From Parcubacteria group bacterium GW2011_GWB1_40_14 (lineage in GTDB: Bacteria; Patescibacteriota; Minisyncoccia; Terrybacterales; GWB1-40-14): DNA of 49,050 nt. A program made the translations under genes and the position numbers. The DNA lies in assembly GCA_000996085.1 (NCBI GenBank), contig LBYG01000008.1, positions 1 to 49,050 on the forward strand. Reading direction: 5' to 3'. The notes under the pieces were generated by a model. The model worked only from the letters and a program-made list of their open reading frames with translations. It did not search any database and was not told where the DNA came from. Shown piece after piece: positions 3,890-45,861 of this stretch. The stretch's first letter is position 1, and every line of letters begins with the position of its first letter.

Positions 3890-3967
3890 TTCTAGAAAAC
3901 CTCTCTATGTTTTCAAAGTACAAACGTACTTTGTATAAAAATAGTCTATCATATAAAAGGAAATATG

Positions 3968-4102
3968 TCAACCCCGCACTTATTTTACGGTATAAGTTAA
4001 TAGTTTTGGAGTGTCGCAACACTCCAAAACTTCTACAACAGCAGTAAGCATTTCAGTTTAAACTTGTTTCTATAATTCTCTGTAAAATAGGTGCGGGGTC
4101 AA
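3968..4102. mobile_element. 127-bp MITE (CCCCGCAC...GTGCGGGG) with TCAA target duplication, copy 1
   Basis: Terminal IRs, internal hairpin gttttggagtg...cactccaaaac, TCAA on both sides, near-identical inverted copy at 6214-6348. Confidence 0.85.
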
Positions 4103-4194
4103 CCCCCCCTATTTACTGTGGAAATTAATCGTTGACCATACGAAAACCGCGTGATAAATGAAAGTTAATCAGATACTTTACACTTTGGTGCAAA

Positions 4195-4473
4195 ATGAAA
4201 CCGGGTATAAGCACCATTCAAACGCCTTATATATTAGTACAAGATGAGAACGATCCAAGAAACGGCCAAATCGCCATAGTTTTGGGAATCAAAACAATTA
4301 CACCTACTGACGGCAAGGGCTATCAATGCCTTTTAATAAAATTTTCCGATTGGGAACATCAATATGTTCCGCTATCAGAAATAATCGGTGTAGCAGAAAA
4401 CCCAAAGTATCATCTGCTCTCTCCGGAAGAAATTTACGAATTTAAAACAAAACCGCCCAGCCCTAAAAATTAG
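4195..4473 (+). CDS. Hypothetical protein
   Basis: 92-aa ORF behind a TTGACC...GATAAA/TAAAT promoter-like region. The stop codon lies inside a palindromic repeat arm. Confidence 0.6.
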   Translation: MKPGISTIQTPYILVQDENDPRNGQIAIVLGIKTITPTDGKGYQCLLIKFSDWEHQYVPLSEIIGVAENPKYHLLSPEEIYEFKTKPPSPKN

Positions 4474-4493
4474 AGCCGGACGGTTTTTACTTG

Positions 4494-4526
4494 CCCAGCT
4501 CTAATCCCTAGTGGATTAGGGTTGGG
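4494..4526. repeat. cccagctctaat...attagggctggg palindrome family; further copies near 4456, 6831, 10839, 13047, 15738, 19179, 20717, 23938, 24664
   Basis: Recurrent imperfect inverted repeat with a conserved mismatch. This copy is flanked by TTG and abuts TTGACA at 4527. Confidence 0.85.
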
Positions 4527-4597
4527 TTGACAAAATGATATATTTATGATACGATATTAATTACAACGTACTTTTACCGCATTCGGGAGGATACCTA

Positions 4598-4714
4598 ATG
4601 TTTGGTTCAACGCGTCGCAACGGCATGATCCGAAGGGTCATCCGCCTCAACGGCAAACTCTTCGGCTTCAAGCCTCGTCTCATCCCTGTTCCAATCCCGG
4701 TCACAAACCGCTAA
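4598..4714 (+). CDS. Small basic 38-aa peptide MFGSTRRNGMIRRVIRLNGKLFGFKPRLIPVPIPVTNR
   Basis: Own promoter TTGACA-17-TACGAT (4527-4555), SD GGGAGG, terminator 4721-4770. Too short for the ORF track. Confidence 0.7.
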   Translation: MFGSTRRNGMIRRVIRLNGKLFGFKPRLIPVPIPVTNR

Positions 4715-4839
4715 ACAAATGGCTCCGATAATTCGCCTCCGTCAGTTGACGGATGGCGAATCGGAGCCTTTAACTTTTTATGAACAGGATTGTGTTATTA
4801 TAAGCATTATTGTAATATATGACTTGTTAAATAAGCTTT

Positions 4840-4913
4840 GGGCGCGTAGCTCAGTTGGCTAGAGCACTTCACTGATAATGAAGAGGTCCTTGGTTCGAGT
4901 CCAAGCGCGCCCA
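4840..4913 (+). tRNA. tRNA-Ile(GAT)
   Basis: Acceptor stem gggcgcg/cgcgccc, anticodon arm cttca-ctGATaa-tgaag, T-arm ggttcgagtcc. CCA not encoded. Confidence 0.95.
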
Positions 4914-4936: not shown

Positions 4937-4973
4937 CCGATCTAAATGCCCCGCAAAGCGGGGCACTTGAATA

Positions 4974-6204
4974 ATGATCTTCAAAAAAGCTTCTGAAAAA
5001 ATTAATACATTCATACCCAAAGAAGCATTGTTGCTTTCCGGACTTATTTTTTTAAGTTATGTTCTTGGTCTTGTGCGCGACAGAATATTTGCGCGTACTT
5101 TCGGTTTAAGTTCCGCGCTTGATGCGTACAACGCGGCATTTATTTTACCCGAACTGTTCATTGATGTTCTAATAAGCGGGGCTTTGGGCGCCGCGTTCAT
5201 TCCGCTCTTTGTAGAAATTTACAAAAAAGATAAAGCGCGCAGCGAAGAATTTGCAAACACCACCATAACCTCTGCTGTGCTTGTAATGATAATAGGCGCC
5301 GCAGTATTAATATTGTTCGCGCCCAAAACCGTTTCTTTAATAGTTCCCGGATTTAACGCTGAAAACCAGTTGCTCTATTCAAATCTGCTCAGAATAATGG
5401 CGCTATCCCCTATAATTTTCGCGTTATCTATATCTTTGGGAGAAATTCTGGTGGCAAAAAGACAATTTTTATTCTATGGCCTGGCGCCGATACTTTATAA
5501 CTTCGGGATAATTTTGGGCACAATAATATTAAGCCCAAAGATAGGAATTTTTGGCGCGGCCATAGGCAGTATTTTGGGAGCATTGCTTTATCTTGCCATA
5601 CGGCTATTGGGAATATTTAGATCCGATTTCTCACTTAAGCCGGCATTTAATATAAAAATGCCGGAATTCCGCAAACTTTTGGTTCTTATGTTGCCCAAAA
5701 TGTTTGGCCATCCGATAGAGCCTCTTACGTTTTTGTTCTTTACCGCAGCAGCCAGTAGAATAGGCAGCGGGGACATAAGCGCGATAAGTTTCGGCCGCAA
5801 TTTCCAAAGCGTCCCCGTGGCGCTAATTGGCATAGCTTTTTCTATAGTTGTTTTTCCTCGAAAGGTTTTTTGGAGGAGGAGAATTTACCCAAGAAGCCAT
5901 ACAAAGAACTTCGCTGATACTTGGATTCTTTTCTATTTCGATACCGCTTGAAAGCTTATCGCATCTTTTAAGCCGTGCTTTTTTTGCCACCAAAAACACT
6001 TTCATCCCGGTTTGTGCCGCTTTTGCGGGATTGCTTACTATAGTAATAACAACAAATTATCTCTCGCCTACTTTGGGCATAATTGCTTTGCCGATAGCTT
6101 TTGCCGCAGGAACCGCAACAAAAATATTATTGCTTGGCGCAATATTGCCTCTACGCGTACGTTTTATACGTAAAAACTCTTTACTTGACGTAGCATCGAT
6201 ATAA
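4974..6204 (+). pseudogene. murJ: Lipid II flippase MurJ/MviN, split by a frameshifting internal deletion near 5858 (real or assembly error)
   Basis: LGLVRDRIFARTFG, DAYNAAFILPE, GALGAAFIPLF in one frame; LLSRAFFATKNTFIP in a second frame. About 405 aa in total, short for MurJ. Confidence 0.8.
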
Positions 6205-6213
6205 AAAGATGGG

Positions 6214-6348
6214 TTGACCCCGCACCTATTTTACAGAGAATTACAGAAATAAGTTTAAACTGAAATGTTTACTGCTGTTGTAGAAGTTTTGGAGTGTCGT
6301 GACACTCCAAAACTATTAACTTATACCGTAAAATAAGTGCGGGGTTGA
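6214..6348. mobile_element. 127-bp MITE with TTGA duplication, copy 2 (inverted)
   Basis: Reverse complement of copy 1 with a few substitutions. The right TTGA is the -35 of TTGATA-17-TATAAA. Confidence 0.85.
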
Positions 6349-6405
6349 TATTTTTTTATAATAAAGCTATAAAACACTGTTGTTTGAAATACAAAAAGGA
6401 GAAAG

Positions 6406-7860: not shown

Positions 7861-7896
7861 CATACCAGGTAGTAGAACAAGTTCACTACCTGGCAT
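7861..7896. mobile_element. Short 30-bp ACCAGGTAGTAG...TCACTACCTGG element with CAT duplication
   Basis: cat-[accaggtagtagaacaagttcactacctgg]-cat. Confidence 0.75.
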
Positions 7897-7901
7897 AAAA
7901 A

Positions 7902-12392: not shown

Positions 12393-12767
12393 TTAACTAA
12401 AACTTTCGTTGAGAAGTTCATTTATTACCTTCTTTAATTCTTCGGTTCTGTTTTCTTTTACCAGTTCAAGAGGACTTTTACCAAAAAATACTTCTTTGGG
12501 TTCACGCAACCATTTTCGTATATAACGCTGTTCTACAATTTCAGAAAGTAAACGGCAAACGTCGTAAAGATAATCTATACGTACGCGCGCTTCAACCACC
12601 AAAACGTTATATCTCTCGCAATTGCGAATTGCGCGGACAGACACGCCGGCGGCAGAAGAAATATCGCGATAGCTAAGGAAACATTCCCGACGCAAAGCAG
12701 AAATTTGCTTACGGGCTTCATGCGTTTGCGGCAATTCTATGGACAATTTGCACACCCTCCGCCACAA
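12393..12767 (-). CDS. Xre/MbcA/ParS-type antitoxin (HTH plus toxin-binding domain)
   Basis: HTH LSYRDISSAAGVSVRAIRN; C-terminal WLREPKEVFFGKSPLELV. Confidence 0.75.
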   Translation of the reverse strand: MWRRVCKLSIELPQTHEARKQISALRRECFLSYRDISSAAGVSVRAIRNCERYNVLVVEARVRIDYLYDVCRLLSEIVEQRYIRKWLREPKEVFFGKSPLELVKENRTEELKKVINELLNESFS

Positions 12768-12979
12768 CAGGACTCTCTTTCGAGTTCGGCCTTGTGCTTA
12801 GCTTCATGTCGTACAATATGACCAAAACATACAACAGCATGTCCGCAACTGGCTTCTCTGCACATTTGGGTCATGCCCTCGGTAGGACAACCCAATTCCT
12901 CACATTCGACACATTCGGCAGGCTCAGTGCAGGCACATTCGGCAGGCTCAGTGCAGGCACATTCGGCAGGCTCAGACAT
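12737..12979 (-). CDS. Small Cys/His-rich protein with EPAECACT repeats
   Basis: SD AAGGAG, 14 Cys, 24-nt tandem repeat 12910-12976. Confidence 0.6.
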   Translation of the reverse strand: MSEPAECACTEPAECACTEPAECVECEELGCPTEGMTQMCREASCGHAVVCFGHIVRHEAKHKAELERESCCGGGCANCP

Positions 12980-13102
12980 TTATTTCTCCTTTAAAAGAAC
13001 CTTTTTTATTTATACAGCAACGCCTCTAAATTATCAAATAAAAAACACCCAGCTCTAATTAAGAATTAGGGCTGGGTATTTTTATAAATTTCAATTTAAC
13101 GA

Positions 13103-14301: not shown

Positions 14302-14673
14302 TTATAAATAGGCTCCGTCAGCATAGGCAGAAGCGGCTTCATAAACCAGAGATGAATTATCTTCTCGTAAAAGTTCAAGAGGCGTTCTGCCTTTAAGATA
14401 TCTCAACTTAGCATGAAACCATTCGTTGATTCCCTGGTGGCTTAAAGATTGATGCAATTGCACCATTATTATGTCGCGTATTCTGATAAGTCTTTCTCTT
14501 ATTGTGCCGGTCAAAAGCGTACCAAGCGTGCGAAACTCTTTATGCTCATAAACTGAAACGCTTATCATTTCAGCAACTTCTTTTTCTGTAAATTTATAGT
14601 CCTCTATAAAAGAATCTATAATACTTAAAGCCGTTCTGGGACTTTCTAATTTGCAACAACTGTCAGACGCCAT
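14302..14673 (-). CDS. Xre/MbcA/ParS-type antitoxin
   Basis: HTH-like FTEKEVAEMISVS; C-terminal WFHAKLRYLKGRTPLELL...AASAYADGAYL; SD GGAGG. Confidence 0.75.
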   Translation of the reverse strand: MASDSCCKLESPRTALSIIDSFIEDYKFTEKEVAEMISVSVYEHKEFRTLGTLLTGTIRERLIRIRDIIMVQLHQSLSHQGINEWFHAKLRYLKGRTPLELLREDNSSLVYEAASAYADGAYL

Positions 14674-14726
14674 TTAACATGCCTCCTTTTCAAAGAACCT
14701 GAAAATGCCTGACGCAGAGCTTAGTT

Positions 14727-15236: not shown

Positions 15237-15388
15237 TTTTATCTCTCCTTCAATACTGCTCAGGACAAGCTTTTTCAAATAACTTATTTTCTTATACCAG
15301 TCCTGTGGATAAAATCAATCTATAAATAAAAACAACAAAAAAACTTCTATGTAGAGAAGTTTTTTATTAAATCCAATGTTCGAAATTT

Positions 15389-16944: not shown

Positions 16945-18476
<1,532 letters not shown>

Positions 18477-19013
18477 ATGATAAATGTGATTCCGACGCAA
18501 AGGTCGGGCGTGCGAACAGAATTTAAGAAAACAAAATCATTTTTTAGAGTCTCATGCAAACCTGGTGCTTGCATAAGACGCTAATCCCAAGTTATTTACA
18601 CGGGAATAGCGAGAAAGAATTAATTATGCTCAAAATAAAACGATGTAATTTATTGGATAAATAAATTATTACTTGCGTTAATGTCCTAACAATGACATTA
18701 ACTGCAGTGTTAAAATTTCAATGTTCTTTCTTTTAACAACCCTTCGACTTCGCTCAGGGTTATTTTTCGCAACTTATAATAAAACTTATTACTGAAGCGA
18801 AAAACAAGACGTGGTTTTGAAAAATCCTTCGATAAATTCAGGATAAATAAAACCGGGAAGACGTCTCTCGCTGTCATGACAGCCGCCTTCCCGGTCTTAC
18901 GACACTAGGAATTGGTTTATTAGACGTCTTGTTATTATTGCTACATATTTTTTAACGCATCGTCCATCCTTCGATAAACTCAGGATAAAAAACTCATTCT
19001 CCGATGCGTTAGA

Positions 19014-19043
19014 AGTATATACCCTGGCAACAAAGGGTGTCAA
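19014..19043 (-). promoter_or_regulatory. Probable 16S rRNA promoter TTGACA-18-TATACT; boxA-like GAACATTGAAA at 18716-18726
   Basis: Near-consensus sigma70 elements upstream of the rRNA leader. Confidence 0.6.
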
Positions 19044-19177
19044 CCCCTACACCATTTTTGCGTCAATAATATCGTAGATACCAATATTTAACCTTTAAAC
19101 GATAATGCAAAAGTTTTGGAGCGTTGTAACGCTCCAAAACCACTAGCTCATTCTGCAAAAACTGGTGTGGGGGTCAA
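19040..19177. mobile_element. MITE with TCAA duplication, copy 3 (CCCCTACACC...GGTGTGGGGG subtype)
   Basis: Same internal gttttggag/ctccaaaac hairpin; close copy at 21510. Confidence 0.85.
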
Positions 19178-21448: not shown

Positions 21449-21509
21449 TGGACCGTTCCTTTTTTAAGAACTGCTTGTTGTTGGTATAATATAACGAAAT
21501 TAATTAAAT

Positions 21510-21651
21510 TCAACCCCCACACCATTTTTGCGACAAGAATATTCGTAGATACCAATCTTTTAACCTTTAAACAATAATGCAAAAGTTTTGAAGTGTTACA
21601 ACACTCCAAAACCAATAGCTCGCTCTGCAAAAACTGGTGTGGGGGGGTCAA
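21510..21651. mobile_element. MITE with TCAA duplication, copy 4
   Basis: Close to copy 3; TCAA at both ends. Confidence 0.85.
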
Positions 21652-21692: not shown

Positions 21693-22352
21693 TTAAATTA
21701 AAATGCCTTCCTGATAAAGCGCGGCTATAAGTAACCCTTTGTCAGAATTTAATTCGAACATTTTTTCTTTTACTTCTTGCGCTGTTAAAGCGCGGGTTTC
21801 GCCAAACTTATCGTTCACGCGATGAAGTGCGTCATAAACATCGGCTAAAGCTACAACACGCGCGCAATCCAAGATAAGCAACTTGGTGCTTTCAGAATAC
21901 TTGTGAAGTTTTGATGGAAGACGTTTGGGATACCCGTTGTTCTGAAAACGGTGATGCTGAACTATAACATCTGCCGTGAAATCAAACTTGCCGCGCAACA
22001 TCCGCCATGACGCATTAACATGTTTGCGCAATTCATGCATATCTTCCGGTGTCCAACCCGAAATCTTACCCAGGCTCAAAGGCGAGACTTCACATTTACC
22101 GATATCGTGCAATGCTCCCGCAATAAATAACGGTTTCTGCGGCATATAAATAAATTTACCGATATCTGCTGCCAAAATAGCTACACGCAAGCAATGTTCG
22201 TAATGCAATTCAGTTATTTCGTTCTTTTCTTTTAATCTCTTAAGTAAATCTTGAATGCTTTTTGAGTCTTCTTCTGTAACACCCAATGCTATAGACCGTA
22301 TGTTAAAGTCTGTTTCAAGTCTGAACAATTTATAGTCTTTGAAAGTAGACAT
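21693..22352 (-). CDS. HD-GYP-like phosphohydrolase
   Basis: HCLRVA, LHDIGK, KHV, QHHRFQNNGYP, ADVYDAL. Confidence 0.85.
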   Translation of the reverse strand: MSTFKDYKLFRLETDFNIRSIALGVTEEDSKSIQDLLKRLKEKNEITELHYEHCLRVAILAADIGKFIYMPQKPLFIAGALHDIGKCEVSPLSLGKISGWTPEDMHELRKHVNASWRMLRGKFDFTADVIVQHHRFQNNGYPKRLPSKLHKYSESTKLLILDCARVVALADVYDALHRVNDKFGETRALTAQEVKEKMFELNSDKGLLIAALYQEGILI

Positions 22353-22585
22353 ATTGCTGCTCCGCATCAGTTTTAAAAGAACACCTACTTCATACCGCAA
22401 CAAAAAGAAAAATTCAACCAATTAAAAATCCGCCTAAATACTTAGCAGATAAAAATTATTTAGCTCTGTTAGAAAAAATATACTTGAGAACAACGTAGGA
22501 GCCGACAAGAATAACCGTATACCTTTTTAATGGTTCTATTTAAAAACTATCGTGGCTTATATATAAATATCAATGCGTTATTTTC

Positions 22586-25254: not shown

Positions 25255-25390
25255 TCAACCCCGCACTATTTTTACGGAACTTATATATAGCAAGGCTTCA
25301 ATCAAAAACGGTTGCGCCACTGCAAAAGTTTTGGAGTATTGCTACGCTCCAAAACTGTTAATTCGTTTAGTAAAAATAGTGCGGGGTCAA
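25255..25390. mobile_element. MITE with TCAA duplication, copy 5, on the rpsP -35
   Basis: ccccgcacta/tagtgcgggg IRs; the left TCAA is part of TTGACA-17-TAAACT. Confidence 0.85.
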
Positions 25391-25444: not shown

Positions 25445-27358
25445 TTAGGCGTTTTGCAGTTTTGGCTTGCCGTGGGAATTCTCCTTTGGGGGCAGATCAG
25501 CAAAGATCTTTTCGAATTCTTCACGATAAACAGTCTCTTGGACAAGAAGTTTCTGAACAAGCGTTTCCAGTCTGTCTTTATACTGCGTGAGAGTTTCTCT
25601 GGCTCGTTCTCTGCCGCGATCAAGAATTTTCTTGATCTCTTCATCGATCAGTTTTGCAACCTCTTCTGAATAATTGCGCTGTTCACTAATATCACGGCCA
25701 AGGAAAATCATGGAATCGCGCTTACCAAAAGTTCGCGTGCCCAAACTTTCACTCATGCCGTACTGCATAACCATGTTTCGCGCAATTTCAGTTGCTTTTT
25801 CTATATCGTTTGAAGCGCCGGTTGTAACGTCACCGAAAATCATTCGCTCAGCTACATTACCGCCAAGCAATCCGGCGATTTGATCCTCAAACTCGGCTTG
25901 AGATCTGAGATAACGATCTTCCGTTGGAAGAGCCATAGTATAACCCAGGGTCATACCGCGGCTAATGATAGTAACTTTAGCTACCGGATCACATTTTGGA
26001 AGTATGCGCTGCACGATAGCGTGTCCGCTTTCGTGATAGGCAATAATGAGCTTCTCTGGCTCGGAAATGATCCGGCTTTTACGCTCAGGACCGGCAACCG
26101 CGCGTTCTATAGCTTCCAGAAACTCGCTCATACCGATGAGTTTAAGGTTTCTGCGGGCAGAAAGAATCGCGGCCTCATTCACTACGCCTGCAATGTCAGC
26201 ACCCGAGAAGCCGGGACACTGTCTTGCTAATTCTTCAAGATCAACTTCTTTGCTGATCAACTTGCCTCGTGCATGAACTTGGAAAATTGCAAGCCGACCT
26301 TTAAGGTCTGGCTTGTCTACGATGACCTGACGGTCAAATCTTCCGGGTCGAAGTAATGCGGGATCCAAAATATCAGGCCGGTTCGTTGCAGCCAACACGA
26401 TTATATTCGTGCTCTGCTCAAACCCGTCCATTTCAACAAGGATCTGGTTTAAGGTTTGTTCGCGTTCGTCGTGACTGCCGCCAAGACCGGATCCGCGTTG
26501 ACGTCCAACCGCATCGATCTCATCTACGAAAACAATTGCCGGACTATTTTTCCTGGCCTGCTCGAAAAGATCGCGCACGCGAGCGGCACCAACACCAACA
26601 AACATTTCAACAAATTCGGAACCCGAAATGCTGAAAAAAGAAGCACCGGCTTCTCCGGCAACCGCTCTTGCGATCAGAGTTTTTCCGCATCCCGGAGGGC
26701 CTACCAACAGAGCGCCTCTGGGCATCTTTGCGCCCAGGGTATTGAATTTCTCAGGATACTTAAGAAATTCCACTATCTCCTGAAGTTCTTGTTTTGCTTC
26801 CTCAACTCCGGCTACATCAGAAAACCTGACAGTACTTTTGCCATGAGTGTGGCGCGCACGCGAGCGGCCAAAATTCATCGCGTTATTATTCTGCTGCTGA
26901 TTTTTTTTCATAATGTACCAAAAAATTCCCAAGATAACCAAAATAGGAATGCCTACTGATATAAGCATTTGTATTAGTCCGTCGTCTGAAGGTGGTAGAC
27001 CGGAAATCGTAGGACCTTGACCTTCGTTCTGACACTTGGCTCCGGATTCAGCACAGACAGAAGTTATATCGGCTCGGATATCGGTGGTCAAAGCTCCCGG
27101 CACAGCAGACGTAACTGACGTGCCGGAACTAATATCTAAAGCCTTTTCCCCGTCTTCGGTGATTTTCAGCAAAAGTTTTCCGCTTTGCTCCTGCTCTACT
27201 TCAGTAACATACCCATCTTTTACTAAAGTCAAAAAAGAATTTTCAGCGTTATCGTAAGGGACAATTATTTCACCTTTTGAAAAAAAGCTTCCAAAAAGCA
27301 TCATTCCAAATACAATGACAAGCATTATCATAAGCATTCTTTTGGTATTGGGATTCAT
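25445..27358 (-). CDS. ftsH: ATP-dependent zinc metalloprotease FtsH
   Basis: Two TMs, [39 protein letters not shown]. Confidence 0.97.
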
Positions 27359-27540
27359 GGACGCCTCGCCTTTTTATTTCAACGTGCTCAAAGTTTGGGG
27401 TTAATATAACATAAGATAAAGAAAAGGCAATATGTCTTACGGTGTTTTTTCAAATTAAAATCCCGATTTTTTGAATCGGGATTTATTTTAATTAAAATTA
27501 AAAACCCAAACCGGTTAGTTTGGGTTTATTTACTAATTAT

Positions 27541-28449
27541 TTATGGCTTATCTTTTTCTAGATCCTCAAGCAATGTGGTCGGATCCACGATTATGCCTTC
27601 ACCGCTTGGCATGATGGCGATCTTAATGTTGTCTGCCAGCTTCTGCAAAGCCTGAAACTGAATCAACATCGGCGTCAACGATTTAGCTAGGGCCTCGTTG
27701 GCCAAAGCCTGACCTTGGGCTTCGATGCTCAAAGCGTCAGCCTTACCCCTGGCAACTTCCCTGGCCTGCTCGGCTTCGTGTCTCCTCTGCATAATGCGCT
27801 GCTCCTCACGCAAAGTATTTTGCGTAGCGATCTGCGCTTCCTCAATGGCTTTATCAAAGTCTGCGCTAAATGTTATATCGTCAATAAGCACATCAACGAG
27901 CGTAATTGAATACTGATCCAATTCTTTCCTGAGTTTACTGGCCACGTCCTTACCAAGCTTTTCGCGTTCTGGCTGAACATCCAACGCTTCATACTTAACT
28001 ACTTCGTCCTTCAGGATATTTTTTACGCGAGGAACGATGATCACTTCATAATAATTAGGACCTACATTCCGGTACAGCGTCTGGACGTTCTCCGGCGCAA
28101 CCTGGAAGTTAACGCTGACGTTAGTGAGAAATATTTTCTGGTTTTCCTTACTGTCTGAATCAAGCGATTCAAATGAACCATTCTGAATCTGAATGTTGGC
28201 TAGCTGCATATCTTGCCACGGAGCAATGACCTGCAAACCCTCACCGAATTGACCGGTAATTGCGCCGAAATTGTAGACAACTCCCACCCACCCTGAATCA
28301 ATTGTCTTAACCGAACTGAACAGCGTAATGACAAGAGCGCCTGACGCAAGACCAATTAAAACTATTTTTTTATATTGCAGGTCTTTCACAAAAAAAATGA
28401 CTCCGATGCCTCCCAAAACCACAGCAATAATTATCATGATCCAAAACAT
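27541..28449 (-). CDS. SPFH/prohibitin family protein
   Basis: N-terminal TMs, GWVGVVYNFG...EGLQVIAPW, DKAIEEAQIA coiled coil. Confidence 0.9.
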   Translation of the reverse strand: MFWIMIIIAVVLGGIGVIFFVKDLQYKKIVLIGLASGALVITLFSSVKTIDSGWVGVVYNFGAITGQFGEGLQVIAPWQDMQLANIQIQNGSFESLDSDSKENQKIFLTNVSVNFQVAPENVQTLYRNVGPNYYEVIIVPRVKNILKDEVVKYEALDVQPEREKLGKDVASKLRKELDQYSITLVDVLIDDITFSADFDKAIEEAQIATQNTLREEQRIMQRRHEAEQAREVARGKADALSIEAQGQALANEALAKSLTPMLIQFQALQKLADNIKIAIMPSGEGIIVDPTTLLEDLEKDKP

Positions 28450-28687
28450 TTCATGCTCCTTTCTATTAGTGCTGACCTTTAACGCGCACAAACACTTGTT
28501 AACGCGCCGATTAGCGTGATTACAAAGAACCGAACGATTTAAATTATGTTTAACAAATACCTAATTTTTTGTCAACCCAGTTAAAAACCTATCAATAAGC
28601 TTTTGGTTAGGCTTTAATATAAAACATTTCAGACGATTTGGAAATAAAAAAGAAATCCTCCGAGTTAATCGGAGGATAAATTTATAT

Positions 28688-30763
28688 TTACGTAGGCAAT
28701 GCGGAAGTTTCTTCCTTGTCATCATCAACAGTTTCAGATTTCTGAAATAATCTGGCTTCAGTGTTCTTAACTGCTTCGGTGCCTGCAAAATTCTTGATGA
28801 ACTCTTTGATAAGTGCTTCACCTTCAAGTGTTTCAGCCCTTATAACTTCTGCAACAAGCCCCTCAAAACCAACCATATTGTCTTCAATGGCATGGCGTGC
28901 CGTATCTTTAGCCTGGTTGATAATGATAGCGATATTGTTATCTATCTTATCCTGCGTTTCCTGACTGAAACTACGAATAAGGTTATTCTCTTCAATATCG
29001 TATGTTCTAGTGGGCAAGTCATCACCCATGGCAAAATCGGTAACCATGCGCCGGGCCAAACGAGTAGCTTGTTTTAAATCGCTGCTTGGGCCAGTAGTAA
29101 TATCGCCTTTGAGAAGAATATCTTCAGCCACAAAACCGCCGTAATCGCTTGCAAGTTCAACCAAGAGATCGCTTTTGCTTTGCAGTAAAATATCACGGTC
29201 TGGCGTATACCAGGTCAAGCCTAAGGCGCGACCACGAGCCACAATGCTTATTTTATCGGGTATAGCATAACCCCTACTTGCAAAGAAACGCGCCACCGCA
29301 TGGCCACATTCATGCCAAGCGATCAATTTCTTCTCTGATTCCGTAAGAAGACGGGTCTTCTTTTCCGGACCGGCAACAATTCTATCTATGGCATCATCGA
29401 TATCTTTTGACAATATTTCATTGCCGTTCCTACGTGAAGCAAGTATGGCTGCCTCGTTCAAAACGTTTGCCAAATCAGCGCCAGAGAACCCCGGCGTTCT
29501 TTTGGCGATATCATATAGCTTAACCGCTTTGGCCAATTTCTTTCCCTTAGCGTGCACCTTAAGAATAGCTACACGACCCTTACGATCAGGAATGTCTACC
29601 ATAACTTGGCGGTCAAAACGACCTGGACGCAAAAGGCTTGGATCAAGAACATCTGGCCGGTTTGTGGCGCCTATGATCATTACACCATTTCTAATGTCAA
29701 ACCCATCCATTTCATGAAGAAGGGCGTTAAGTGTCTGAGCATACTCATCGCCGCCACCACCCATGGTTTGACTGCCGCGTTTTCGTCCAACCGCATCGAT
29801 CTCATCTATGAACACCACGCAAGGCGAATTGGCCCGCGCTGTTTCAAAAAGTTTCCTGATACGCGATGAACCAACGCCCACAAACATCTCAACAAAATCA
29901 GAACCGTTCGCTGAAAAGAACGGAACCCTAGCTGTACCCGCAACGGCTCTAGCAAGAAGGGTCTTGCCAGTACCGGGAGGACCGATAAGCAAGACACCTC
30001 TTGGCATACGCGCGCCAAGAGAAGTAAACTTCTCAGGATTTTTTAGGAAGTCCACGACTTCTTCAAGTTCAATCTTAGCCTCGTCCACTCCGGCAACATC
30101 TTTAAAGGTCACCTGTTCGATGCTAACACGCGAAGCGCCTGGGTTATCTGAAGATGACTGATGACCAGTCTGATTCTTATTTTTATCTTCGAATTTACGC
30201 CCATTGTTCGTGGGTGGATTGCTTCTAAGACGCCCAACAAACCGTAATATTAAAAAAATCCCACCTAAAAGCAACCCAAACATTAGAAAGCTAGATATTG
30301 GATTTCCGGGCTGCGGAGGCGGCGGAACTTTTTCCTCCTCTTTAATAATCTCGTACTCAAAGCGATTGGCGTCCGTAATAACTATTCCTTCTAGCGGCAA
30401 CAGATCAACCTTCAAATCCGTATTATTTGGTATATAAACAGATTCCTGAATATCATTTTTCAGTGTAACGATAAGCGTGACACCCCTTGCCACAACCTTC
30501 TTCACTTCACCATTTCTTATCTGATCATAAAGTTTTGTGAGAGGTTCCGTGCGAGGCGGACAATTTCGGCCACTGCATGGCACCGGAGTTGCGTATGAAT
30601 CAAACGTAGGTTGCGCGGTTGGATATGATTCTGTCTTTGGAGTGAGTTGATAAGAAGAACTTATTCCAACGGTTAAAACACGTAATACAAAAAAAGAAAA
30701 AATAACAGAAAAGGTTATGAGCAATATGATCACTAAGTCTTTAGGAATATTCGGGTGTTTCAC
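28688..30763 (-). CDS. ftsH: Second FtsH paralog
   Basis: [32 protein letters not shown]; divergent N-terminus. Confidence 0.93.
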
Positions 30764-30833: not shown

Positions 30834-30878
30834 CAACCCCGTTAGAAATCCGCCCTGTCGCAAACTCTAACGGGGCAA
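30834..30878. mobile_element. cccgttaga/tctaacggg element on the ftsH-2 -35 (CAA duplication); family also at 2908 and 33607
   Basis: caa-[ccccgttaga...tctaacgggg]-caa; minus strand reads TTGATT...TGGTATGCT. Confidence 0.7.
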
Positions 30879-30922: not shown

Positions 30923-31282
30923 TTATTCGAAAGGATTGGTTTCTATCTCAGGCTTAAACATGTTTACAAACTCCATCTTATATTCTTCTCCGAAACACGC
31001 TTGCATAGCTCCCGCTACATTAAAATGTGCGTCAAATGGTTTAGTGTCTTGAGGGGGATGTATTTCAAGCCTGCTTCCCCTATTATCTATAATAAAACCT
31101 TCCCCTAGCATGGCTTTTAGTTTTTCAACAAATTGTTGTGGGATAAAATTCCCTGAAGAGCCGTATCCTTCAAAATTAACAGTATATTCATGTTCGTGTC
31201 CCGGTCCTGCCCAGGCAACCCAGGATTTTGGTTTGGCCTGTTCTCTTCCCTCAAGATTTTTTGATAATTCAGGATTTTCCAT
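30923..31282 (-). CDS. Hypothetical protein
   Basis: 119-aa ORF; its start codon is duplicated by the adjacent MITE. Confidence 0.7.
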   Translation of the reverse strand: MENPELSKNLEGREQAKPKSWVAWAGPGHEHEYTVNFEGYGSSGNFIPQQFVEKLKAMLGEGFIIDNRGSRLEIHPPQDTKPFDAHFNVAGAMQACFGEEYKMEFVNMFKPEIETNPFE

Positions 31283-31420
31283 ACCAGGTAGTAGAAATTA
31301 GACTAATTTATCTATAAAATAGCGAATTTCTAATTAAAATTAATTATTAAAAATTTTATTAACTTAACCAGGTATTTTTGTTCCGCAAAGCGGAACGGTC
31401 TAATTTTCACTACCTGGCAT
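31280..31420. mobile_element. 135-bp MITE ACCAGGTAGTAG...TCACTACCTGG with CAT duplication
   Basis: Close copy at 42338-42477; CAT on both sides. Confidence 0.85.
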
Positions 31421-32109: not shown

Positions 32110-32231
32110 TAAAAAATAAAAAATCAAAAAGCAAAATGAAAAATGACAAATCAAAATCTAAAAATAAATGGTTTTGGTTATTTTTAAATTTTAATATGTG
32201 ATTTTAATATTTGATATTTAATTTTTGATAT
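32110..32231. repeat. Degenerate heptamer-repeat hairpin; family also at 18262-18385, 23588-23617, 38331-38437, 41020-41136
   Basis: About 7-nt periodic aaaatca-like units followed by complementary tttgata-like units. Confidence 0.7.
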
Positions 32232-33109
32232 TAAGATAATATTTCTCTCGTCTTCTCAAGTATACCGTCAAGATCATGATAATAATCTCCCGGAGCGGGA
32301 TCTTTAATAGAAACCCATCGCGTTTCAACTATCTTACTGTTTTCTGAGGGTTCTATTTTATCGGTTTTAGTTTCAACGATAAAATAAGTTATTTTCCTCT
32401 TGCTTTTTCCTTTAGAGGTGCTTTTTGAAACGTATTCAATGTCGCCTACGGCTTCGCCCACGGTTATATCAGTTATACCTATTTCTTTTTTAAGTTCTCT
32501 TTTTAATGCGGTAGCAGAATTTTTGTCCTTCAGAGTTAAATGACCTTTGGGAAAAACCCAAAAACCATATTTATCTTTAAGCCACAAAACTTTTATATCT
32601 TTATCATTATGATTTATTACTGCGGCGCCAACCAACAATTCTTCCGGCAGATCTTCATCAGGTTTCGTCTTGATGTGATCCTTCATTGGCTCGCCTATCT
32701 CGCGATAAATTGTTCCCAAAACGCCGTTAATAAATTTACCCGAGGTTTCTCCTCCAAAAGATTTGGCCAATTCTATGCTTTCATTTATTGCGACTTTTGG
32801 CGGAACAGCATTTCGATCTCCGAACAAAAGCTCGTAAATCCCTACGCGAAGAACGTTCCGGTCTACCATGGCTATCTGTTCAAGCGGCCACTCCGGAGCC
32901 GCTTTTTCGATTATGGTATCTATTTCTTTCTTCTTATCCAAAACTCCGTTAACAAGCATTTTTACAAATCCCTCTTCTTCAAGTCCCGGACCAAACTCTG
33001 TGATCACGTACTCAACAGCTGCATCAATTTTTTCATTATTACAGCCGTTAAAATCCCACTTATAGAGGGCTTGCATCGCTAAAGATCGCGCTAGATGACG
33101 ATTGGCCAT
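32231..33109 (-). CDS. nusB: Transcription antitermination factor NusB fused to a C-terminal NUDIX-like domain
   Basis: RHLARSLAMQALY, VDRNVLR, AINESIELAKSFG, FINGVLG; then WVFPKGH...LKRELKKEIG. Confidence 0.93.
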   Translation of the reverse strand: MANRHLARSLAMQALYKWDFNGCNNEKIDAAVEYVITEFGPGLEEEGFVKMLVNGVLDKKKEIDTIIEKAAPEWPLEQIAMVDRNVLRVGIYELLFGDRNAVPPKVAINESIELAKSFGGETSGKFINGVLGTIYREIGEPMKDHIKTKPDEDLPEELLVGAAVINHNDKDIKVLWLKDKYGFWVFPKGHLTLKDKNSATALKRELKKEIGITDITVGEAVGDIEYVSKSTSKGKSKRKITYFIVETKTDKIEPSENSKIVETRWVSIKDPAPGDYYHDLDGILEKTREILS

Positions 33110-33740: not shown

Positions 33741-34121
33741 TTAGCGGGCAGTTAGTCTCCTAAAGGTTTGCAGTATATAAAGCGTCTGATCAGCGTCCTG
33801 TGGCCAGGAAACGTCTGTTTTCGGCAACGCGGGTGGTGTTTCTTCGGCAACCGATACACGCACGGCATTAATAAGCTCATCCAAATACTTGTTCTTGTCG
33901 GCATAAATTACATCCGTCCAACTATCTTTAGATATGATAAGAGAAGGAGTTTCACTGATTTCTATATAAATGAATAATTCGCCCACGGGTGTAGCTAGAC
34001 GGGTAACATAAAACTGAGGAGAAGAATTAAGAGCGCACCAATGCAAAAATCCTCGTTGAGTAAAAAGGGCCAAATTATCGATCACCAGTCTTTTGCTGTC
34101 GTGGCAAACACGGTGTCCCAT
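33741..34121 (-). CDS. Hypothetical protein
   Basis: SD TAAGGAGG, upstream TTGACT promoter, terminator 33706-33732. Confidence 0.7.
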   Translation of the reverse strand: MGHRVCHDSKRLVIDNLALFTQRGFLHWCALNSSPQFYVTRLATPVGELFIYIEISETPSLIISKDSWTDVIYADKNKYLDELINAVRVSVAEETPPALPKTDVSWPQDADQTLYILQTFRRLTAR

Positions 34122-34229
34122 ATCTTCCTCCTTACTGCTTTAAAAGAACTTTTATTAATATACTATTCTGTACACAATATGCTTTCTAAAGTCAACGTGA
34201 TTTTTAAAATTAAAGTTACAGTTATTAAA

Positions 34230-34829
34230 TTATTTAATAAAACTTTTGCGGTGAATTCTTAATAAACCAAATTTTTTAATCGCAGAATAATGAGCCCGCG
34301 TTCCGTATCCTTTATGCCTGTCAAAACCATATTTTGGCCACATTAAAGAATATTTAACCATCAAACGATCTCGGGTCACTTTAGCCATTATTGAGGCCGC
34401 AGATATTATAGGTATCTTCTCATCTCCCTTTATCACTGTTTTTTGATTAAAATTATCCGGTGCGTATAAAGAGCCGTCCAAATATATCATTTCAAATTTA
34501 ATTTGAACGTGTTTTTTATATTTATTCGTTAATCTTTTTATAGCTAAGGCCACAGCTAACCTTGCGGCCACAGCAATACCTCTTTTATCTATAATTTTTT
34601 GATCAACTGAAGCGGTTGCCCACGTAAATGATCCATTTTTTGCAAGGGTTAAATACCATTGTTCGCGTTGTTTCGCGGAAAGACGTTTAGAGTCACGAAT
34701 CCCTTTAAGCAGAGTTTTTTGATGGCCATAAATATTTGCGGGCATGCCAAAAGCAGCAACAGTAATAGGGCCGGCAAGAGGCCCTCTTCCAACCTCGTCA
34801 ATTCCAACGACAAACGACTTGGATTTCAT
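34230..34829 (-). CDS. rnhB: Ribonuclease HII
   Basis: GIDEVGRGPLAGP, DSK, KGD, AASIMAKVTRD, HKGYGT, HRKSF. Confidence 0.97.
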   Translation of the reverse strand: MKSKSFVVGIDEVGRGPLAGPITVAAFGMPANIYGHQKTLLKGIRDSKRLSAKQREQWYLTLAKNGSFTWATASVDQKIIDKRGIAVAARLAVALAIKRLTNKYKKHVQIKFEMIYLDGSLYAPDNFNQKTVIKGDEKIPIISAASIMAKVTRDRLMVKYSLMWPKYGFDRHKGYGTRAHYSAIKKFGLLRIHRKSFIK

Positions 34830-34860
34830 AAATTTATATTACCACACGCGTAAAAAATCA

Positions 34861-42340: not shown

Positions 42341-42477
42341 ACCAGGTAGTAGAAATTAGACTATTCTATAAATAAATTAGCTGATTTCTAGTTAAAATTG
42401 ATTATTAAAATTTTATTAACTTAACCAGGTATTTTTGTTCCGCTTTGCGGAACGGTCTAATTTTCACTACCTAGCAT
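42338..42477. mobile_element. 134-bp MITE with CAT duplication
   Basis: Close copy of 31280-31420. Confidence 0.85.
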
Positions 42478-42528: not shown

Positions 42529-44013
42529 TTACCCGGTCTTCTTATCAAGTAACTCTTTTACAATTTTGGGGTTGGCTTTGCCGCGAGTTACTGCCATAAC
42601 TTTACCGATCAAAAATTGAGTCGCGTTAGGTTTGCCGCTTTTAATATCCTCTACAACTTTGGGGTTTTCTATCAGTATTTGATCTATAATTGTACCGATC
42701 TCTCCTTCATCACTAGTTTGTCCTATATTCTTCTCCTTTATTATTTCGTGGGGGTCCGCACCTGTGCCGAACATTTCGGAAAGAACATCTTTTGCCGCAC
42801 GCGAAGAAAGCTTATCCTGAGCTATAAGCTTAATTAATTCAGCAAAGTCCTCTTGTTTTATAAGTAAATCCCCAATTGAAGATGATTTAGCGACTATAAT
42901 ACCTCGCAGATCACTAAGCATGTAGTTCGTAGTAAGCTTAATTAAGCGCGACGCATCAAATTCTTTATCATCTGCTTCGTACCAGGCCCTAAGTTCGCTT
43001 ATGACCTGCTCAAAATAGTCACCCATCTCTCTGTCTATTACAAAAACTTCTGCGTCTTGCGGCGACAGATCATACTCTGAGATTAACCTGTTCCTGCGTT
43101 TAGCCGGCAATTCAGGCAACATAGCCCGCACGGTATCAAAATACTCTGCAGAAAAACGCATAGGCGGCAAATCGGGTTCGGGAAAATATCTATAATCATG
43201 TGCTTCTTCTTTTTCTCTTTGCGAAAAAGTTACCTGCTTCATGTCGTGCCAGCCGCGTGTCTCCTGAATTACTTTACCGCCGTCATCCAAAACTGCAGCC
43301 TGTCTCTCTATCTCGTAAGCAACAGCTTTTTCAACAGAACGAAGTGAATTTAAATTTTTTACTTCAACTTTTGTGCCGAATTTTTCGGTTCCGACTTTAC
43401 GCAACGATAAATTAACTTCAACGCGCATCTGTCCTTTTTCCATGTTCGCATCCGAAGCTCCTAAATATTTAAGTATCAATTGCAACTCTTCGGCAAAAGC
43501 ACGGGCTTCTTTAGCTGAACGGATATCGGGCTTAGTAACCAATTCCATCAACGGAACCCCGGCGCGATTAAAATCCACATAACTTTCTTTTGCCGCATCC
43601 GGATGCAATAATCTTCCGGTATCTTCTTCAAGATGTATCCGTTCTATTCTTATCTGCTTTTTTTCCTTAGTATCTTCGGGAATAATTTCCAAATGTCCCT
43701 CTCCGCATAGAGGAAGATCGTATTGGGATATCTGATAGCCTTTGGGCAAATCGGGATAAAAATAATTCTTACGGTCAAATTTAGAAAACTCGGTCAGTGT
43801 ACATTTCAGAGCCGCGCCCACGGACTGTACCAACTCCACTGCCTTCTTGTTTATAACCGGAAGGGTTCCGGGGTGCGCTAAACACACCGGACAAACATTT
43901 ACATTAGGATGTTTTTCGTCGGGGTCATTACGGGAAGCGCAAAACATTTTGGTATCTGTTTTGAGCTCCGAATGTATTTCCAGGCCTATAACGGCTTCGT
44001 AAGTGGTATTCAT
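42529..44013 (-). CDS. gatB: Asp/Glu-tRNA amidotransferase subunit B
   Basis: IGLEIH, FDRKNYFYPDLPKGYQISQ, HLEEDTG, DYRYFPEPDL. Confidence 0.98.
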   Translation of the reverse strand: MNTTYEAVIGLEIHSELKTDTKMFCASRNDPDEKHPNVNVCPVCLAHPGTLPVINKKAVELVQSVGAALKCTLTEFSKFDRKNYFYPDLPKGYQISQYDLPLCGEGHLEIIPEDTKEKKQIRIERIHLEEDTGRLLHPDAAKESYVDFNRAGVPLMELVTKPDIRSAKEARAFAEELQLILKYLGASDANMEKGQMRVEVNLSLRKVGTEKFGTKVEVKNLNSLRSVEKAVAYEIERQAAVLDDGGKVIQETRGWHDMKQVTFSQREKEEAHDYRYFPEPDLPPMRFSAEYFDTVRAMLPELPAKRRNRLISEYDLSPQDAEVFVIDREMGDYFEQVISELRAWYEADDKEFDASRLIKLTTNYMLSDLRGIIVAKSSSIGDLLIKQEDFAELIKLIAQDKLSSRAAKDVLSEMFGTGADPHEIIKEKNIGQTSDEGEIGTIIDQILIENPKVVEDIKSGKPNATQFLIGKVMAVTRGKANPKIVKELLDKKTG

Positions 44014-44086
44014 GATTACTCTCTATTATGTAAAAAACGGCCTGCAATTGCAAACCGTTTTTTCGTTAATGATCCAAAAACTTTCT

Positions 44087-44446
44087 TTAACAAGACGTTG
44101 CGGTAAACCCTCCGCTGCTTACAATGTTTACAACTACCAAAACCAATCCTTTAGCAAGCAAAGCCACAATAATACCTATTATGCCGTAAAGTATATATTG
44201 TCTAGCCTGCTTTGTCTTATCTTCACTGCCTCCTCCGGTCAAAAACAAAAACGCTGCATACAATAATATTATGACGGCAAGAATCATTATGACTGTGAAC
44301 AATAAATTAGTGGCCGTACAAATCAAATTGAAAAAATCATCAAGATCAGTAGCTATAGCAGGCGGAGATTGAACCGTAACAGCTAAAACGGTCGAAACTG
44401 GAGCAAAAGTCAAACCCAACGGTATAAAACGTAAAAATTTATTCAT
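44087..44446 (-). CDS. TrbC/VirB2-like pilin (CPR type)
   Basis: Signal ending VLA, two TMs, LTGGGSEDKTKQARQYILYGIIG. Confidence 0.8.
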   Translation of the reverse strand: MNKFLRFIPLGLTFAPVSTVLAVTVQSPPAIATDLDDFFNLICTATNLLFTVIMILAVIILLYAAFLFLTGGGSEDKTKQARQYILYGIIGIIVALLAKGLVLVVVNIVSSGGFTATSC

Positions 44447-44542
44447 ATAATGCTTATTTCTTAAGCCCTCACCCCCTTTCTAATATATTTTTATATTATC
44501 ATACAAAAAACGGTTTGCCTAATACAAACCGTTTTATTTTAG

Positions 44543-45076
44543 TTAGGGTCTTAATGGAAATATTTTTTCCGCATCATCAAATAATTTAAGAATATCAAGT
44601 TCGTTGCACCATATTGGTTCTAGCCCCGGATTCTCTAACCACTCTTCTTCTGATACCTCGCCTTCTTGATATCTTGCTGTAAACCAAACATGTTCTTCCA
44701 ATTCTGCGCGGGTAAACCAGGCAATGTCTTGTGCTTTTTCCTTATTTCTATCTATTTTGCCCAAATATACAGATGCATATATCCGCCAGACGTGATAATT
44801 ATCGTTCACACGACCGCAAAATCGGACCGTTCTTTCCTGATGTATCATATATAATTGAATTGCTCTTAAGCCGGTCTTCTCTTTTAATTCTCTGCGCGCA
44901 GCCGACTTAAATTCTTTTTCTGTCGGATTCAATTTGACTAGATCAGCATGACCCGAGGGAAGCGTCCATTCATAAGGAGGCTTTGTGCTCTTAATGAGCA
45001 GGATCTGAGAACGCAACGCTTCTTCTCTGGTAACAATTATTCCAACACTGGTATGATCACAGACCGTTTTTGACAT
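44543..45076 (-). CDS. NUDIX hydrolase, atypical box
   Basis: CDHTSVG, LPSGH...AARRELKEKTGL. Confidence 0.8.
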   Translation of the reverse strand: MSKTVCDHTSVGIIVTREEALRSQILLIKSTKPPYEWTLPSGHADLVKLNPTEKEFKSAARRELKEKTGLRAIQLYMIHQERTVRFCGRVNDNYHVWRIYASVYLGKIDRNKEKAQDIAWFTRAELEEHVWFTARYQEGEVSEEEWLENPGLEPIWCNELDILKLFDDAEKIFPLRP

Positions 45077-45077
45077 A

Positions 45078-45731
45078 TCAAAGCTCGCGCAAAAATCTCT
45101 GATGTTTAATAGCAATTATCAATTCAAGATATTGAATGATCTGACCAAAGACTTCTTCAGGAGATTTGTTACCGTCAACAATACGCACACCCGAAGTACT
45201 GAACATATTTGCCAAAACAAAATAATTAGATCTAACCTTTCGTAAGATATCCTGTTTCTCAAAAAGATGCCGCTCTATAGGCAAACGGCTTATTGCGATC
45301 TCAACCGGAAGATCAAGAATAATTGTTAAATCGGGGAACAAGAAACCGTCTTGCTTATCCAAAAATGTTTTTATTGGAACCTTTGAGGTTGCGGCGCCAT
45401 AGGCCACAGTAGAAAAAGCGTATCTTTCTGTAACTTCTGCTATGCCCGCCGCAAGATTGGGTTCAATTTCCTGTTCTAGATGTTCTCTGCGGTTATCTAT
45501 AAAAAGATACTGGATCTCTTCAGGGGATCTTTCTTCAGCCTTTCTATAAACAATTCTGTCCAGTCGTTCGTAGGTTTGACTACCTAATCCATTCCAGGGT
45601 TCTTGCGTTTTTATAACAGTAAAACCACGTTCTTTTAACCATAAACATATATTTATCGCTTGTGTTTCTTTTCCTGCGCCATCCATACCCTCTAAAGCAA
45701 TAAAAAGTCCTGTATAGGGATTGGGCTGCAT
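45078..45731 (-). CDS. tmk: Thymidylate kinase paralog 2
   Basis: FIALEGMDGAGK, TQEP, ERYAFSTVAYG, PDLTIILD. Confidence 0.9.
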   Translation of the reverse strand: MQPNPYTGLFIALEGMDGAGKETQAINICLWLKERGFTVIKTQEPWNGLGSQTYERLDRIVYRKAEERSPEEIQYLFIDNRREHLEQEIEPNLAAGIAEVTERYAFSTVAYGAATSKVPIKTFLDKQDGFLFPDLTIILDLPVEIAISRLPIERHLFEKQDILRKVRSNYFVLANMFSTSGVRIVDGNKSPEEVFGQIIQYLELIIAIKHQRFLREL

Positions 45732-45861
45732 TAAGATTCTCCTATTCTTTTTTCAAATTGCTATAAAGCTTTAACCTAAAAGTATCACCAAAATTATTTC
45801 CGGTCAATTAAAAACCATCCTTACGGATGGTCATAAAACTATTTACTTGTTTATTTATCGA

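Follow-up and report, generated by a model that had tools for sequence, protein, structure and literature searches.

Do the boxA-like sequences that recur upstream of protein-coding genes in a stretch of DNA from Parcubacteria group bacterium GW2011_GWB1_40_14 constitute a signal in RNA and, if so, is this signal read by the Nus factors? The stretch, contig C8 in our numbering and 49,050 bp long in its entirety (the window), belongs to a small assembly (944,541 bp in 38 contigs, ~40% GC, 92.8% complete), small genomes being found among its class relatives as well, and its genes lie predominantly on the minus strand. The initial annotation listed nine strong and four weaker copies of the motif in the leaders of accessory genes preceded by a Shine-Dalgarno (SD) sequence, set these against core genes that start almost without a leader, and proposed a broad Nus-dependent mRNA regulon. 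We conclude that the motif is very probably a strand-specific RNA element under selection. A boxA read by NusB and S10 (NusE) would be its best-supported identity, to which we assign a probability of roughly one half.

When counted window-wide on both strands with up to two mismatches, GTTCTTTGAAAA occurs 23 times as compared with 15.0 ± 3.7 in shuffled sequence, and 4 of 100 shuffles reach 23. Since this count is not significant, the motif was tested by strand and position, genome-wide. Gene calling used a hexamer coding score, in which starts preceded by an SD received a bonus, and yielded 863 genes that cover 80% of the genome; 14-mers with at least four occurrences were masked as repeats. 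An 11-mer mask, which took out 40% of the genome, was discarded, as was a raw k-mer ranking that was swamped by dispersed repeats; as the copies are dispersed, the idea of a CRISPR array was rejected. The full analysis covered the genome under study (G000), one congener (G001, the only genome of the same genus, of which 746 kb or ~90% was analysed) and one outgroup (G021, a complete genome of 651,549 bp from a different family of the same class). Promoters and −10 boxes are predictions throughout.

In the masked genome, GTTCTTT is among the top 7-mers of upstream regions, ranking behind words that derive from the SD, the −35 and leftover repeats. In the 120 nt that precede each of the 863 genes it is found 25 times in the sense orientation against 7.9 expected, and 8 times in antisense against 8.2 expected; the congener yields 17 sense occurrences (5.3 expected) and 9 antisense (5.8 expected). 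The GTTCTTT sites of the genome under study (n = 27) mostly lie 19–59 nt 5′ of the start codon, between a −10-like hexamer and the SD. The signal is sharpest in the 70-nt upstream regions of SD-led genes, 127 from G000 and 85 from G001, with dinucleotide shuffles as the control. These 212 pooled regions contain 23 sense and 1 antisense copies of GTTCTTT (shuffle mean 1.38, maximum 6) and, for the degenerate pattern G..C.TT.AA, 34 sense and 3 antisense matches (shuffle mean 6.3, maximum 13), with none of the 200 shuffles reaching 34. Against a composition-matched background the SD-led regions are therefore enriched on the sense strand only, and near the SD. Carriers of G..C.TT.AA make up 23 of the 127 SD-led genes in G000 and 11 of the 85 in G001, whereas the 432 non-SD genes with long upstream regions have 8 sense and 6 antisense matches (Fisher p = 4.5e-10 versus 23/127). 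The 111 SD-led regions of the outgroup show no enrichment of the motif (2 sense, 2 antisense, 3.6 in shuffles). The pipeline, therefore, does not create the signal, nor do all members of the class have the feature.

A search that needs no gene calls gives the same picture. The composite GTTCTTT-N3-30-GGAG-N4-10-ATG is found 21 times in G000 as compared with 0–7 for scrambled and reverse-complement controls, 13 times in G001 (controls 0–4) and 3 times in G021 (controls 0–1). A degenerate version is noisier but agrees genome-wide (51 versus 16–35 in G000, 33 versus 13–31 in G001 and 23 versus 16–36 in G021). Over the 41 genomes of the class the GTTCTTT composite totals 265 as compared with 46 for a backwards-read control (table summed by hand), an excess that is overstated since this control does not keep the real SD–ATG signal. 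Composite matches are many in G037, G034, G019, G014, G011 and G012, while G020, G024, G006, G008 and G015 have few; among the matches listed, the class-wide sites often read GTTCTTTAACA. A composite match at 30100 in the window lies within the FtsH coding sequence and was taken as chance. As a separate observation, a repeated intergenic block of the congener (G001:C25:4783-7604 and C23:4130-5317) contains three copies of the palindrome GTTCTTTTTGCTCTAGCAAAAAGAAC, which holds the GTTCTTT 7-mer in a hairpin context unlike that of the leader sites.

The motif takes the form a-G-[U/A/C]-[U/A]-C-[U/C/G]-U-U-[G/A/U]-A-A-A. In the 212 SD-led regions, other bases at G1, C4, T6 or T7 bring the counts down to background, and these positions are therefore required. 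Positions 2 (T>A>C), 3 (T or A), 5 (T>C>G) and 8 (G>A>T) vary, positions 9–11 are A-rich, and the base 5′ of G1 is usually A. Among the 34 strict sites of G000 and G001, 13 have the core GTTCTTT and 3 have GATCTTT; forms seen in mRNA leaders include GUUCUUUGAAA, GUUCUUUGAAAA and GCACGUUGAAA. All 34 are on the transcribed strand, 3′ of the best predicted −10. G1 lies 19–49 nt from the start codon (median 29), and the distance from the end of the motif to the SD ranges from −1 to 28 nt (median 7), being 0–10 nt in 27 of the 34. At 21 well-scored predicted promoters the gap between the −10 and G1 has its mode at 6–7 nt and a tail beyond 20 nt, so that the motif often starts at the predicted +1. 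Given this position of G1 and the short gap to the SD, the motif sits at the very start of short leaders.

Two ways in which the motif could interact with the initiation region by base pairing were tried and rejected. A fourU-like thermometer, with GUUCUUU pairing to the SD, gave only weak pairing by hand at 14687, and in many cases the motif directly adjoins the SD; an SD interaction lengthened by pairing between GAAA and the tail of 16S would apply only to the few SD-abutting sites. Independently of the motif, upstream regions contain GGGTTGA 13 times (2.4 expected), and an extended promoter box, (A)AAATRGTGYGGGGTTGAC, occurs in the window at 19030–19060 (−), 3950–3990 (−), 6320–6350 (+), 21520–21545 (−) and 25255–25290 (−). 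Promoters with this box include those of 16S rRNA and S16.

The strict sites of the window (3911, 12990, 14688, 22372, 27377, 28477 and 34139) are all on the minus strand. GTACTTTGAAA (3911–3921) belongs to the leader of a hypothetical gene (3515–3889), with 7 nt between it and the SD. GTTCTTTTAAA occurs three times: at 12990–13000, abutting the SD of a small open reading frame (ORF, 12737–12979), at 22372–22382, 6 nt after the predicted −10 TATGAA in the leader of an HD-domain gene (21693–22352), and at 34139–34149, ahead of a hypothetical gene (33741–34121), where 7 nt separate it from TATATT on the 5′ side and another 7 nt from the SD on the 3′ side. GTTCTTTGAAA (14688–14698) precedes the AGGAGG of a hypothetical gene (14302–14673) by 1 nt, and the variant GCACGTTGAAA (27377–27387) is in the leader of FtsH (25445–27358). 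In the leader of the SPFH/Band-7 gene (27541–28449), the segment 28477–28530 contains both GTTCTTTGTAAT (28519–28530), which has the 7-nt core only, and GCGCGTTAAAG (28477–28487). GTTGTTTGAAAT at 6379–6390 (+, C4 to G), GTTATTTGAAAA at 15272–15283 (−, C4 to A) and GTTCTTAAAAAA at 21460–21471 (−, T7 to A) are outside the strict pattern. The nine sites initially described as strong are all present on the coding strand, each preceded by a sigma-70-like promoter and followed by an SD. As members of the motif the thirteen listed sites divide: those given as 3910, 12990, 14687, 22371, 34139 and 27377 fit strictly and that at 28520 retains the core only, while those at 6379, 15272, 21461, 11451, 12304 and 45750 alter C4 or T7 and, since non-consensus bases at these positions are at background, are indistinguishable from chance.

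The pattern is also found in the leaders of ribosomal RNA (rRNA). The copy previously reported for the rRNA leader of the window, GAACATTGAAA, was recovered at 18716–18726 (−), 250 nt upstream of the 16S gene (in context, AAAGAAAGAACATTGAAATTTT), as this genome's counterpart of the rrn boxA. On contig C14, the leader of the 23S gene has GAACGTTGAAA (in context, CGAAAAGAACGTTGAAAATTC) immediately 5′ of the strand that forms the processing stem with the 23S trailer, and the 23S leader of the congener has GAACATTGAAAA (in context, GAACATTGAAAATC). We rejected GTTCTTTGAGGGG, which lies farther 5′ in the 23S leader of G000, as the rRNA boxA: the congener has TTTCTTCAAGGGG there, and it is GAAC[A/G]TTGAAA that is conserved instead. 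Across the class, the 16S leaders (≤400 nt) have a sense match to the pattern in 15 of 24 usable cases, with 17 sense and 5 antisense matches in total, and their elements include GTTCTTTGAAAA, GCTCTTTGAAAA, GTACTTTGAAAA, GTTCCTTGAAAA, GAACCTTGAAAA and GAACGTTGAAAA. To judge from these leaders, the rRNA element of the class varies exactly where the mRNA motif is free and is fixed where the mRNA motif is fixed.

As for the arrangement of these genes, the 16S gene stands alone at 16946–18476 (−) with its own promoter, leader and terminator, and the 23S gene is on another contig (C14:38274-42085, −), followed by the 5S gene. Unlike in rrn operons, 16S and 23S are unlinked here, and neither shares its promoter, leader or processing stem with the other. 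With 3,811 bp, the 23S match is longer than its model of 2,925 positions, which implies an insertion of ~0.9 kb.

The pattern agrees with published boxA sequences. According to the available sections of PMC5725501, the consensus is GYTCTTTAANA, with C4 and T6 critical; boxA reads UGCUCUUUAACA in Escherichia coli and AUGAUCUUUGAAA in Bacillus subtilis, the latter being bound by BsNusB in nuclear magnetic resonance (NMR) experiments (PMC13753749, available part). Our sites match GYTCTTTAANA and the B. subtilis form GAUCUUUGAAA, and two strict sites read GTTCTTTAAAA, a perfect match to the consensus. In the NusB–NusE–BoxA structure from Aquifex, as described in the accessible portion of PMC3177189, 8 nt are contacted, G2, C5 and U6 do not withstand transversion, and a pocket between NusB and NusE holds U8. 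Motif positions G1, C4 and T7 correspond, in the numbering given there, to G2, C5 and U8, and all three are required here. The claim of boxA-like identity made in the initial annotation therefore holds up, with the same fixed and free positions as in the organism's own rRNA leaders and a fit to the published consensus sequences.

The candidate reader of the motif is encoded in the window itself, as a NusB–Nudix fusion (32231–33109, −) with NusB at residues 4–137 and the Nudix part at ~160–277. NusB passes TIGR01951 (130.9 bits, cut-off 88.35) and keeps both the phenylalanine that stacks on U8 (F126; F122 in Aquifex) and, in the RNA-binding helix 5, the D/E-R-N residues. The Nudix part has weak, unspecific matches only, to the Ndx1, RppH and MutT models. 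A domain scan of 54 ORFs of the window also identified NusG (48480–49025, −), and NusA (C16), S10/NusE (C10:30595-30879) and a SuhB-family gene (C6) are encoded elsewhere in the genome. Of the 41 class genomes, 40 have a NusB; a full-length match to the fusion is present in 13 of the 41, the others having a stand-alone NusB of ~145–157 aa. A link between fusion and motif was considered and rejected, since G037, G034, G019 and G011 have stand-alone NusB and are rich in composites, the fusion-bearing G021 is poor in them, and no correlation is seen. Rho, on the other hand, was not found: Rho_RNA_bind has no match in any of the 41 class genomes, which include G000 and a complete single contig, and the rho equivalog TIGR00767 reaches only 46 bits against a cut-off of 509. 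A classical anti-Rho antitermination role is therefore unlikely. Of the proposed Nus-dependent regulon, the motif and the genes for the Nus factors are in place.

Which genes carry the motif? SD-led genes as a whole are enriched in accessory genes, as had been proposed, with orthologues in the congener for 43 of 127 as compared with 426 of 716 of the rest (p = 1e-7). Reciprocal best hits are found for 4 of the 23 motif genes, 39 of the 104 other SD-led genes and 479 of all 863 genes; the poverty of motif genes in orthologues gives a Fisher p of 2e-4 when all other genes serve as the reference and of 0.09 when the remaining SD-led genes do. Pfam matches among motif genes are to HD, SPFH, FtsH, DUF444, redoxin, M50 and IrrE/M78, 11 of the 17 motif genes not in the window lack any Pfam match (E ≤ 0.01), and no common function was found with Pfam. 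In ten orthologous leader pairs the motif is strict in two and partial in about four (e.g. GAACATTGAAA versus GAACTTTGACA, or GATCCTT versus GCTCTTT), the leaders being otherwise diverged. One neighbouring gene calls for a remark of its own: MurJ is split over the overlapping ORFs 4974–5951 and 5848–6204 (+), which match Pfam positions 1–260 and 305–409, and may represent a frameshift, a pseudogene or an assembly error.

Taken as a boxA, the motif would be a single-stranded signal at or near the 5′ end of short SD-led leaders, mostly those of accessory genes. The Nudix-fused NusB, together with S10, would bind it as soon as the RNA exits the polymerase and, with NusG, NusA and the SuhB homologue, would form a Nus-modified elongation complex that tethers the leader to the polymerase. 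A precedent exists in E. coli suhB, where, in the available part of PMC5725501, a BoxA located 6 nt from the SD represses translation. Given this precedent, the spacing of ~7 nt to the SD and the failure to find Rho, the likeliest consequence would be control of ribosome access to the SD, in the manner of suhB, and not protection from Rho. How strongly leadered accessory genes are expressed would in this way be tied to the pool of free NusB/S10. We consider it unlikely that in Parcubacteria, which lack Rho and are mostly leaderless on this view, NusB/S10 is not reserved for rRNA but serves as a global regulator of the whole leadered, SD-dependent and mainly accessory transcriptome, in which the 5′ boxA would gate ribosome entry through NusB/S10 left free from ribosome synthesis and, in lineages that have it, the Nudix fusion would also act on the adjacent 5′-triphosphate, setting mRNA lifetime.

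Several observations weigh against identification of the motif with boxA. The preferred mRNA core, GTTCTTT (13/34), differs at positions 2, 3 and 5 from the GAAC[A/G]TT of the rRNA leaders of the genus, and TTGAAAAttt, which is the best-conserved half in rRNA leaders, is the looser half in mRNAs. Position 5 is the equivalent of U6, a transversion of which abolishes binding in E. coli; here it is free in mRNAs (T>C>G) and, in the organism's own rRNA leaders, either A or G, which is a genuine discrepancy. The outgroup shows no mRNA enrichment despite carrying the NusB–Nudix fusion and an rRNA boxA-like element, and conservation of the motif between orthologues is only partial. The suhB-like gene, nusA and rpsJ are not preceded by the motif, and the autoregulation typical of known cases is thus absent. 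Set against the few cases known from gamma-proteobacteria (0–7 mRNA boxA per genome in the available part of PMC5725501), 23 strict sites in 0.94 Mb is a far larger number. Finally, the gene starts and SD classes rest on a crude caller of our own that favours SD-preceded starts.

The main rival is a translation-initiation element that is independent of Nus factors, i.e. a pyrimidine-then-A-rich enhancer or standby site 5′ of the SD, with the 30S subunit, S1 or some other RNA-binding protein as its ligand; leadered mRNAs might need such help where most genes are leaderless. We regard this as possible, if rather unlikely. It would account for the tight spacing to the SD (median 7 nt) and to the start codon (19–49 nt) with a looser one to the −10, for restriction to SD-led genes (23/127 versus 8/432, the latter with 6 antisense) and for motif genes that lack a common function, and a multi-domain S1 protein is indeed encoded (C9, ~14.4–15.7 kb). 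What it leaves unexplained is that the same pattern appears in untranslated rRNA leaders at the usual place of boxA, that G1 and C4 are strictly needed, unlike in generic AU-rich S1 sites, and that the 111 SD-led genes of the outgroup are not enriched.

The preference for the predicted +1 raises a second alternative, that the element acts in DNA, either as a promoter-proximal or start-site element or as an operator of a global transcription factor overlapping +1. The mode of 6–7 nt between −10 and G1 at the 21 predicted promoters speaks for it, as does the small inverted repeat TTC-N3-GAA in GTTCTTTGAA. However, the gap to the −10 runs from 6 to more than 20 nt, a palindromic operator would not be expected to show a strand asymmetry of 34 versus 3, variation at positions 2 and 3 breaks the inverted repeat whereas T6 and T7 do not vary, and the rRNA-leader copies, 70–290 nt from the rRNA genes, are distant from promoters. 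We therefore hold a DNA-level role to be improbable. Shared ancestry, whereby accessory genes would have spread with a single promoter–leader cassette so that the motif is inherited and not selected, is very improbable. Motif genes are mostly lineage-specific (4/23 with a reciprocal best hit in the congener) and cluster on C8 and C14, and some sites share an extended GGGGTTGACA promoter; yet the flanks are unrelated outside the 11-nt motif, the sites persist after masking of repeated 14-mers, and the pattern recurs across many families of the class as well as in rRNA leaders. Chance in AT-rich intergenic DNA, for which only the non-significant window-wide count could be invoked, is refuted at the level tested by the shuffles, by the 1 or 3 antisense matches as internal control, and by replication in G001 with G021 as negative control for the pipeline.

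The leaders that carry the motif stand beside two other kinds of gene start. In the first, a −10-like TANNNT lies a few nucleotides before the start codon: at rnhB (34829–34845, −) TAATAT is followed after 6 nt by ATG, with no SD, and similar starts are seen at trmD (23850), miaA (41170, +), the HAMP gene (7777) and thrS (38466, +). Genome-wide, TANNNT peaks at spacers of 6–7 nt (58 and 42 versus ~28 elsewhere), and 133 genes of G000 were classed as leaderless-type, as predicted from our own gene calls. The contrast with leaderless genes drawn in the initial annotation was borne out for rnhB, trmD, miaA, the HAMP gene and tmk1, and extends to thrS (TAnnnT 5–9 nt before ATG and no SD); the start of the helicase is ambiguous, and the 'REC gene' was not identified, with no Response_reg domain in the 54 window ORFs scanned.

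In the second kind of start, the ATG is abutted by an arm of a mobile element. The TACTAC initially taken for a −10 belongs to this inverted-repeat element and not to a promoter. The copy at 31283–31417 (−) has a 3′ arm that ends 1 nt before the ATG of the gene 30923–31282; a second long copy lies at ~42341–42475 (−), and short hairpin forms near 7863–7895 and 3042–3075 precede ATGs that are not gene starts. The element, ~135 nt in length, consists of CCAGGTAGTGAAAATTCGAC, an inner hairpin, an AT-rich stretch and GTCGAATTTCTACTACCTGGT, after which comes the ATG; its arms are complementary, its fold has −47.2 kcal/mol (z = −7.4), and a comparison with Rfam gave no family match. With at least 45 copies genome-wide, terminal inverted repeats, no coding capacity and presence/absence differences between relatives, it is an element of the miniature inverted-repeat transposable element (MITE) type. 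Genes whose ATG is abutted by an element arm number 36 in G000, many of them core (e.g. L36, GreA, SerRS), versus 2 in G001; 27 of those in G000 have an orthologue in G001, none of the 27 pairs shares the element, and the upstream regions in G001 look leaderless. The picture of core genes as near-leaderless thus applies to some of them, ~36 genes being abutted by the element instead. A second dispersed inverted-repeat family, made up of CCCGTTAG, ~117 nt and CTAACGGG, is often paired and present on many contigs; in the window it is seen at 2908–3029, 2978, 3497, 30838–30867 and 33608.

Leaderless mRNAs are known in Actinobacteria and Deinococcus-Thermus. The genes described here likewise have a −10 located 5–9 nt before the ATG and no SD, and include many core genes; they differ from those systems in that the leaderless class here rests on predicted starts and in that a mobile element has replaced the upstream region of ~36 genes, in G000 only. 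For annotation of these genomes a simple rule follows, in which three start architectures are distinguished: leaderless, leadered with an SD and often with boxA, and rebuilt by a mobile element.

Phage lambda nut sites, and phage early leaders more generally, borrow the host boxA. The similarity to our sites is that boxA is found on non-ribosomal genes that often move horizontally; here, however, no boxB-like hairpin or N-type protein was seen on reading the sites, and single small genes carry the motif, not long operons. The rrn boxA of E. coli and B. subtilis shares the pattern, and the 16S and 23S leaders of this organism carry a member of it upstream of the processing stem; within the genus, the rRNA copies read GAAC[A/G]UUGAAA and the mRNA copies mostly GUUCUUU.

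The closest known counterpart is the mRNA boxA described in PMC5725501. As far as its available sections go, both systems have a GYTCTTT-type core on the mRNA strand, no more than 50 nt from the start codon and separated from the SD by a few nucleotides (6 in suhB, a median of 7 here), and the known targets also include accessory genes, such as that of a ParE-like toxin. They differ in that the known mRNA boxA is often autoregulatory (suhB, rpsJ, ribH-nusB), whereas none precedes the Nus genes here; in that regulation there ends in Rho-dependent termination, whereas no Rho was found here or in 40 relatives; and in that positions 2, 3 and 5 are free here. In the limited literature collection that we searched, no paper joins boxA or antitermination with the Candidate Phyla Radiation (CPR), or Patescibacteria with leaderless or Shine-Dalgarno starts.

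Known non-rRNA boxA elements concern a handful of genes per genome, at which repression of translation is followed by Rho termination. Here, a boxA-type signal is carried by about one-sixth of the SD-led genes of a 0.94-Mb genome and recurs in many families of the class, in organisms in which no Rho was found. If NusB/S10 bind this signal, it would define a large Nus mRNA regulon in CPR bacteria, and the role of the Nus complex in the absence of Rho would become directly testable.

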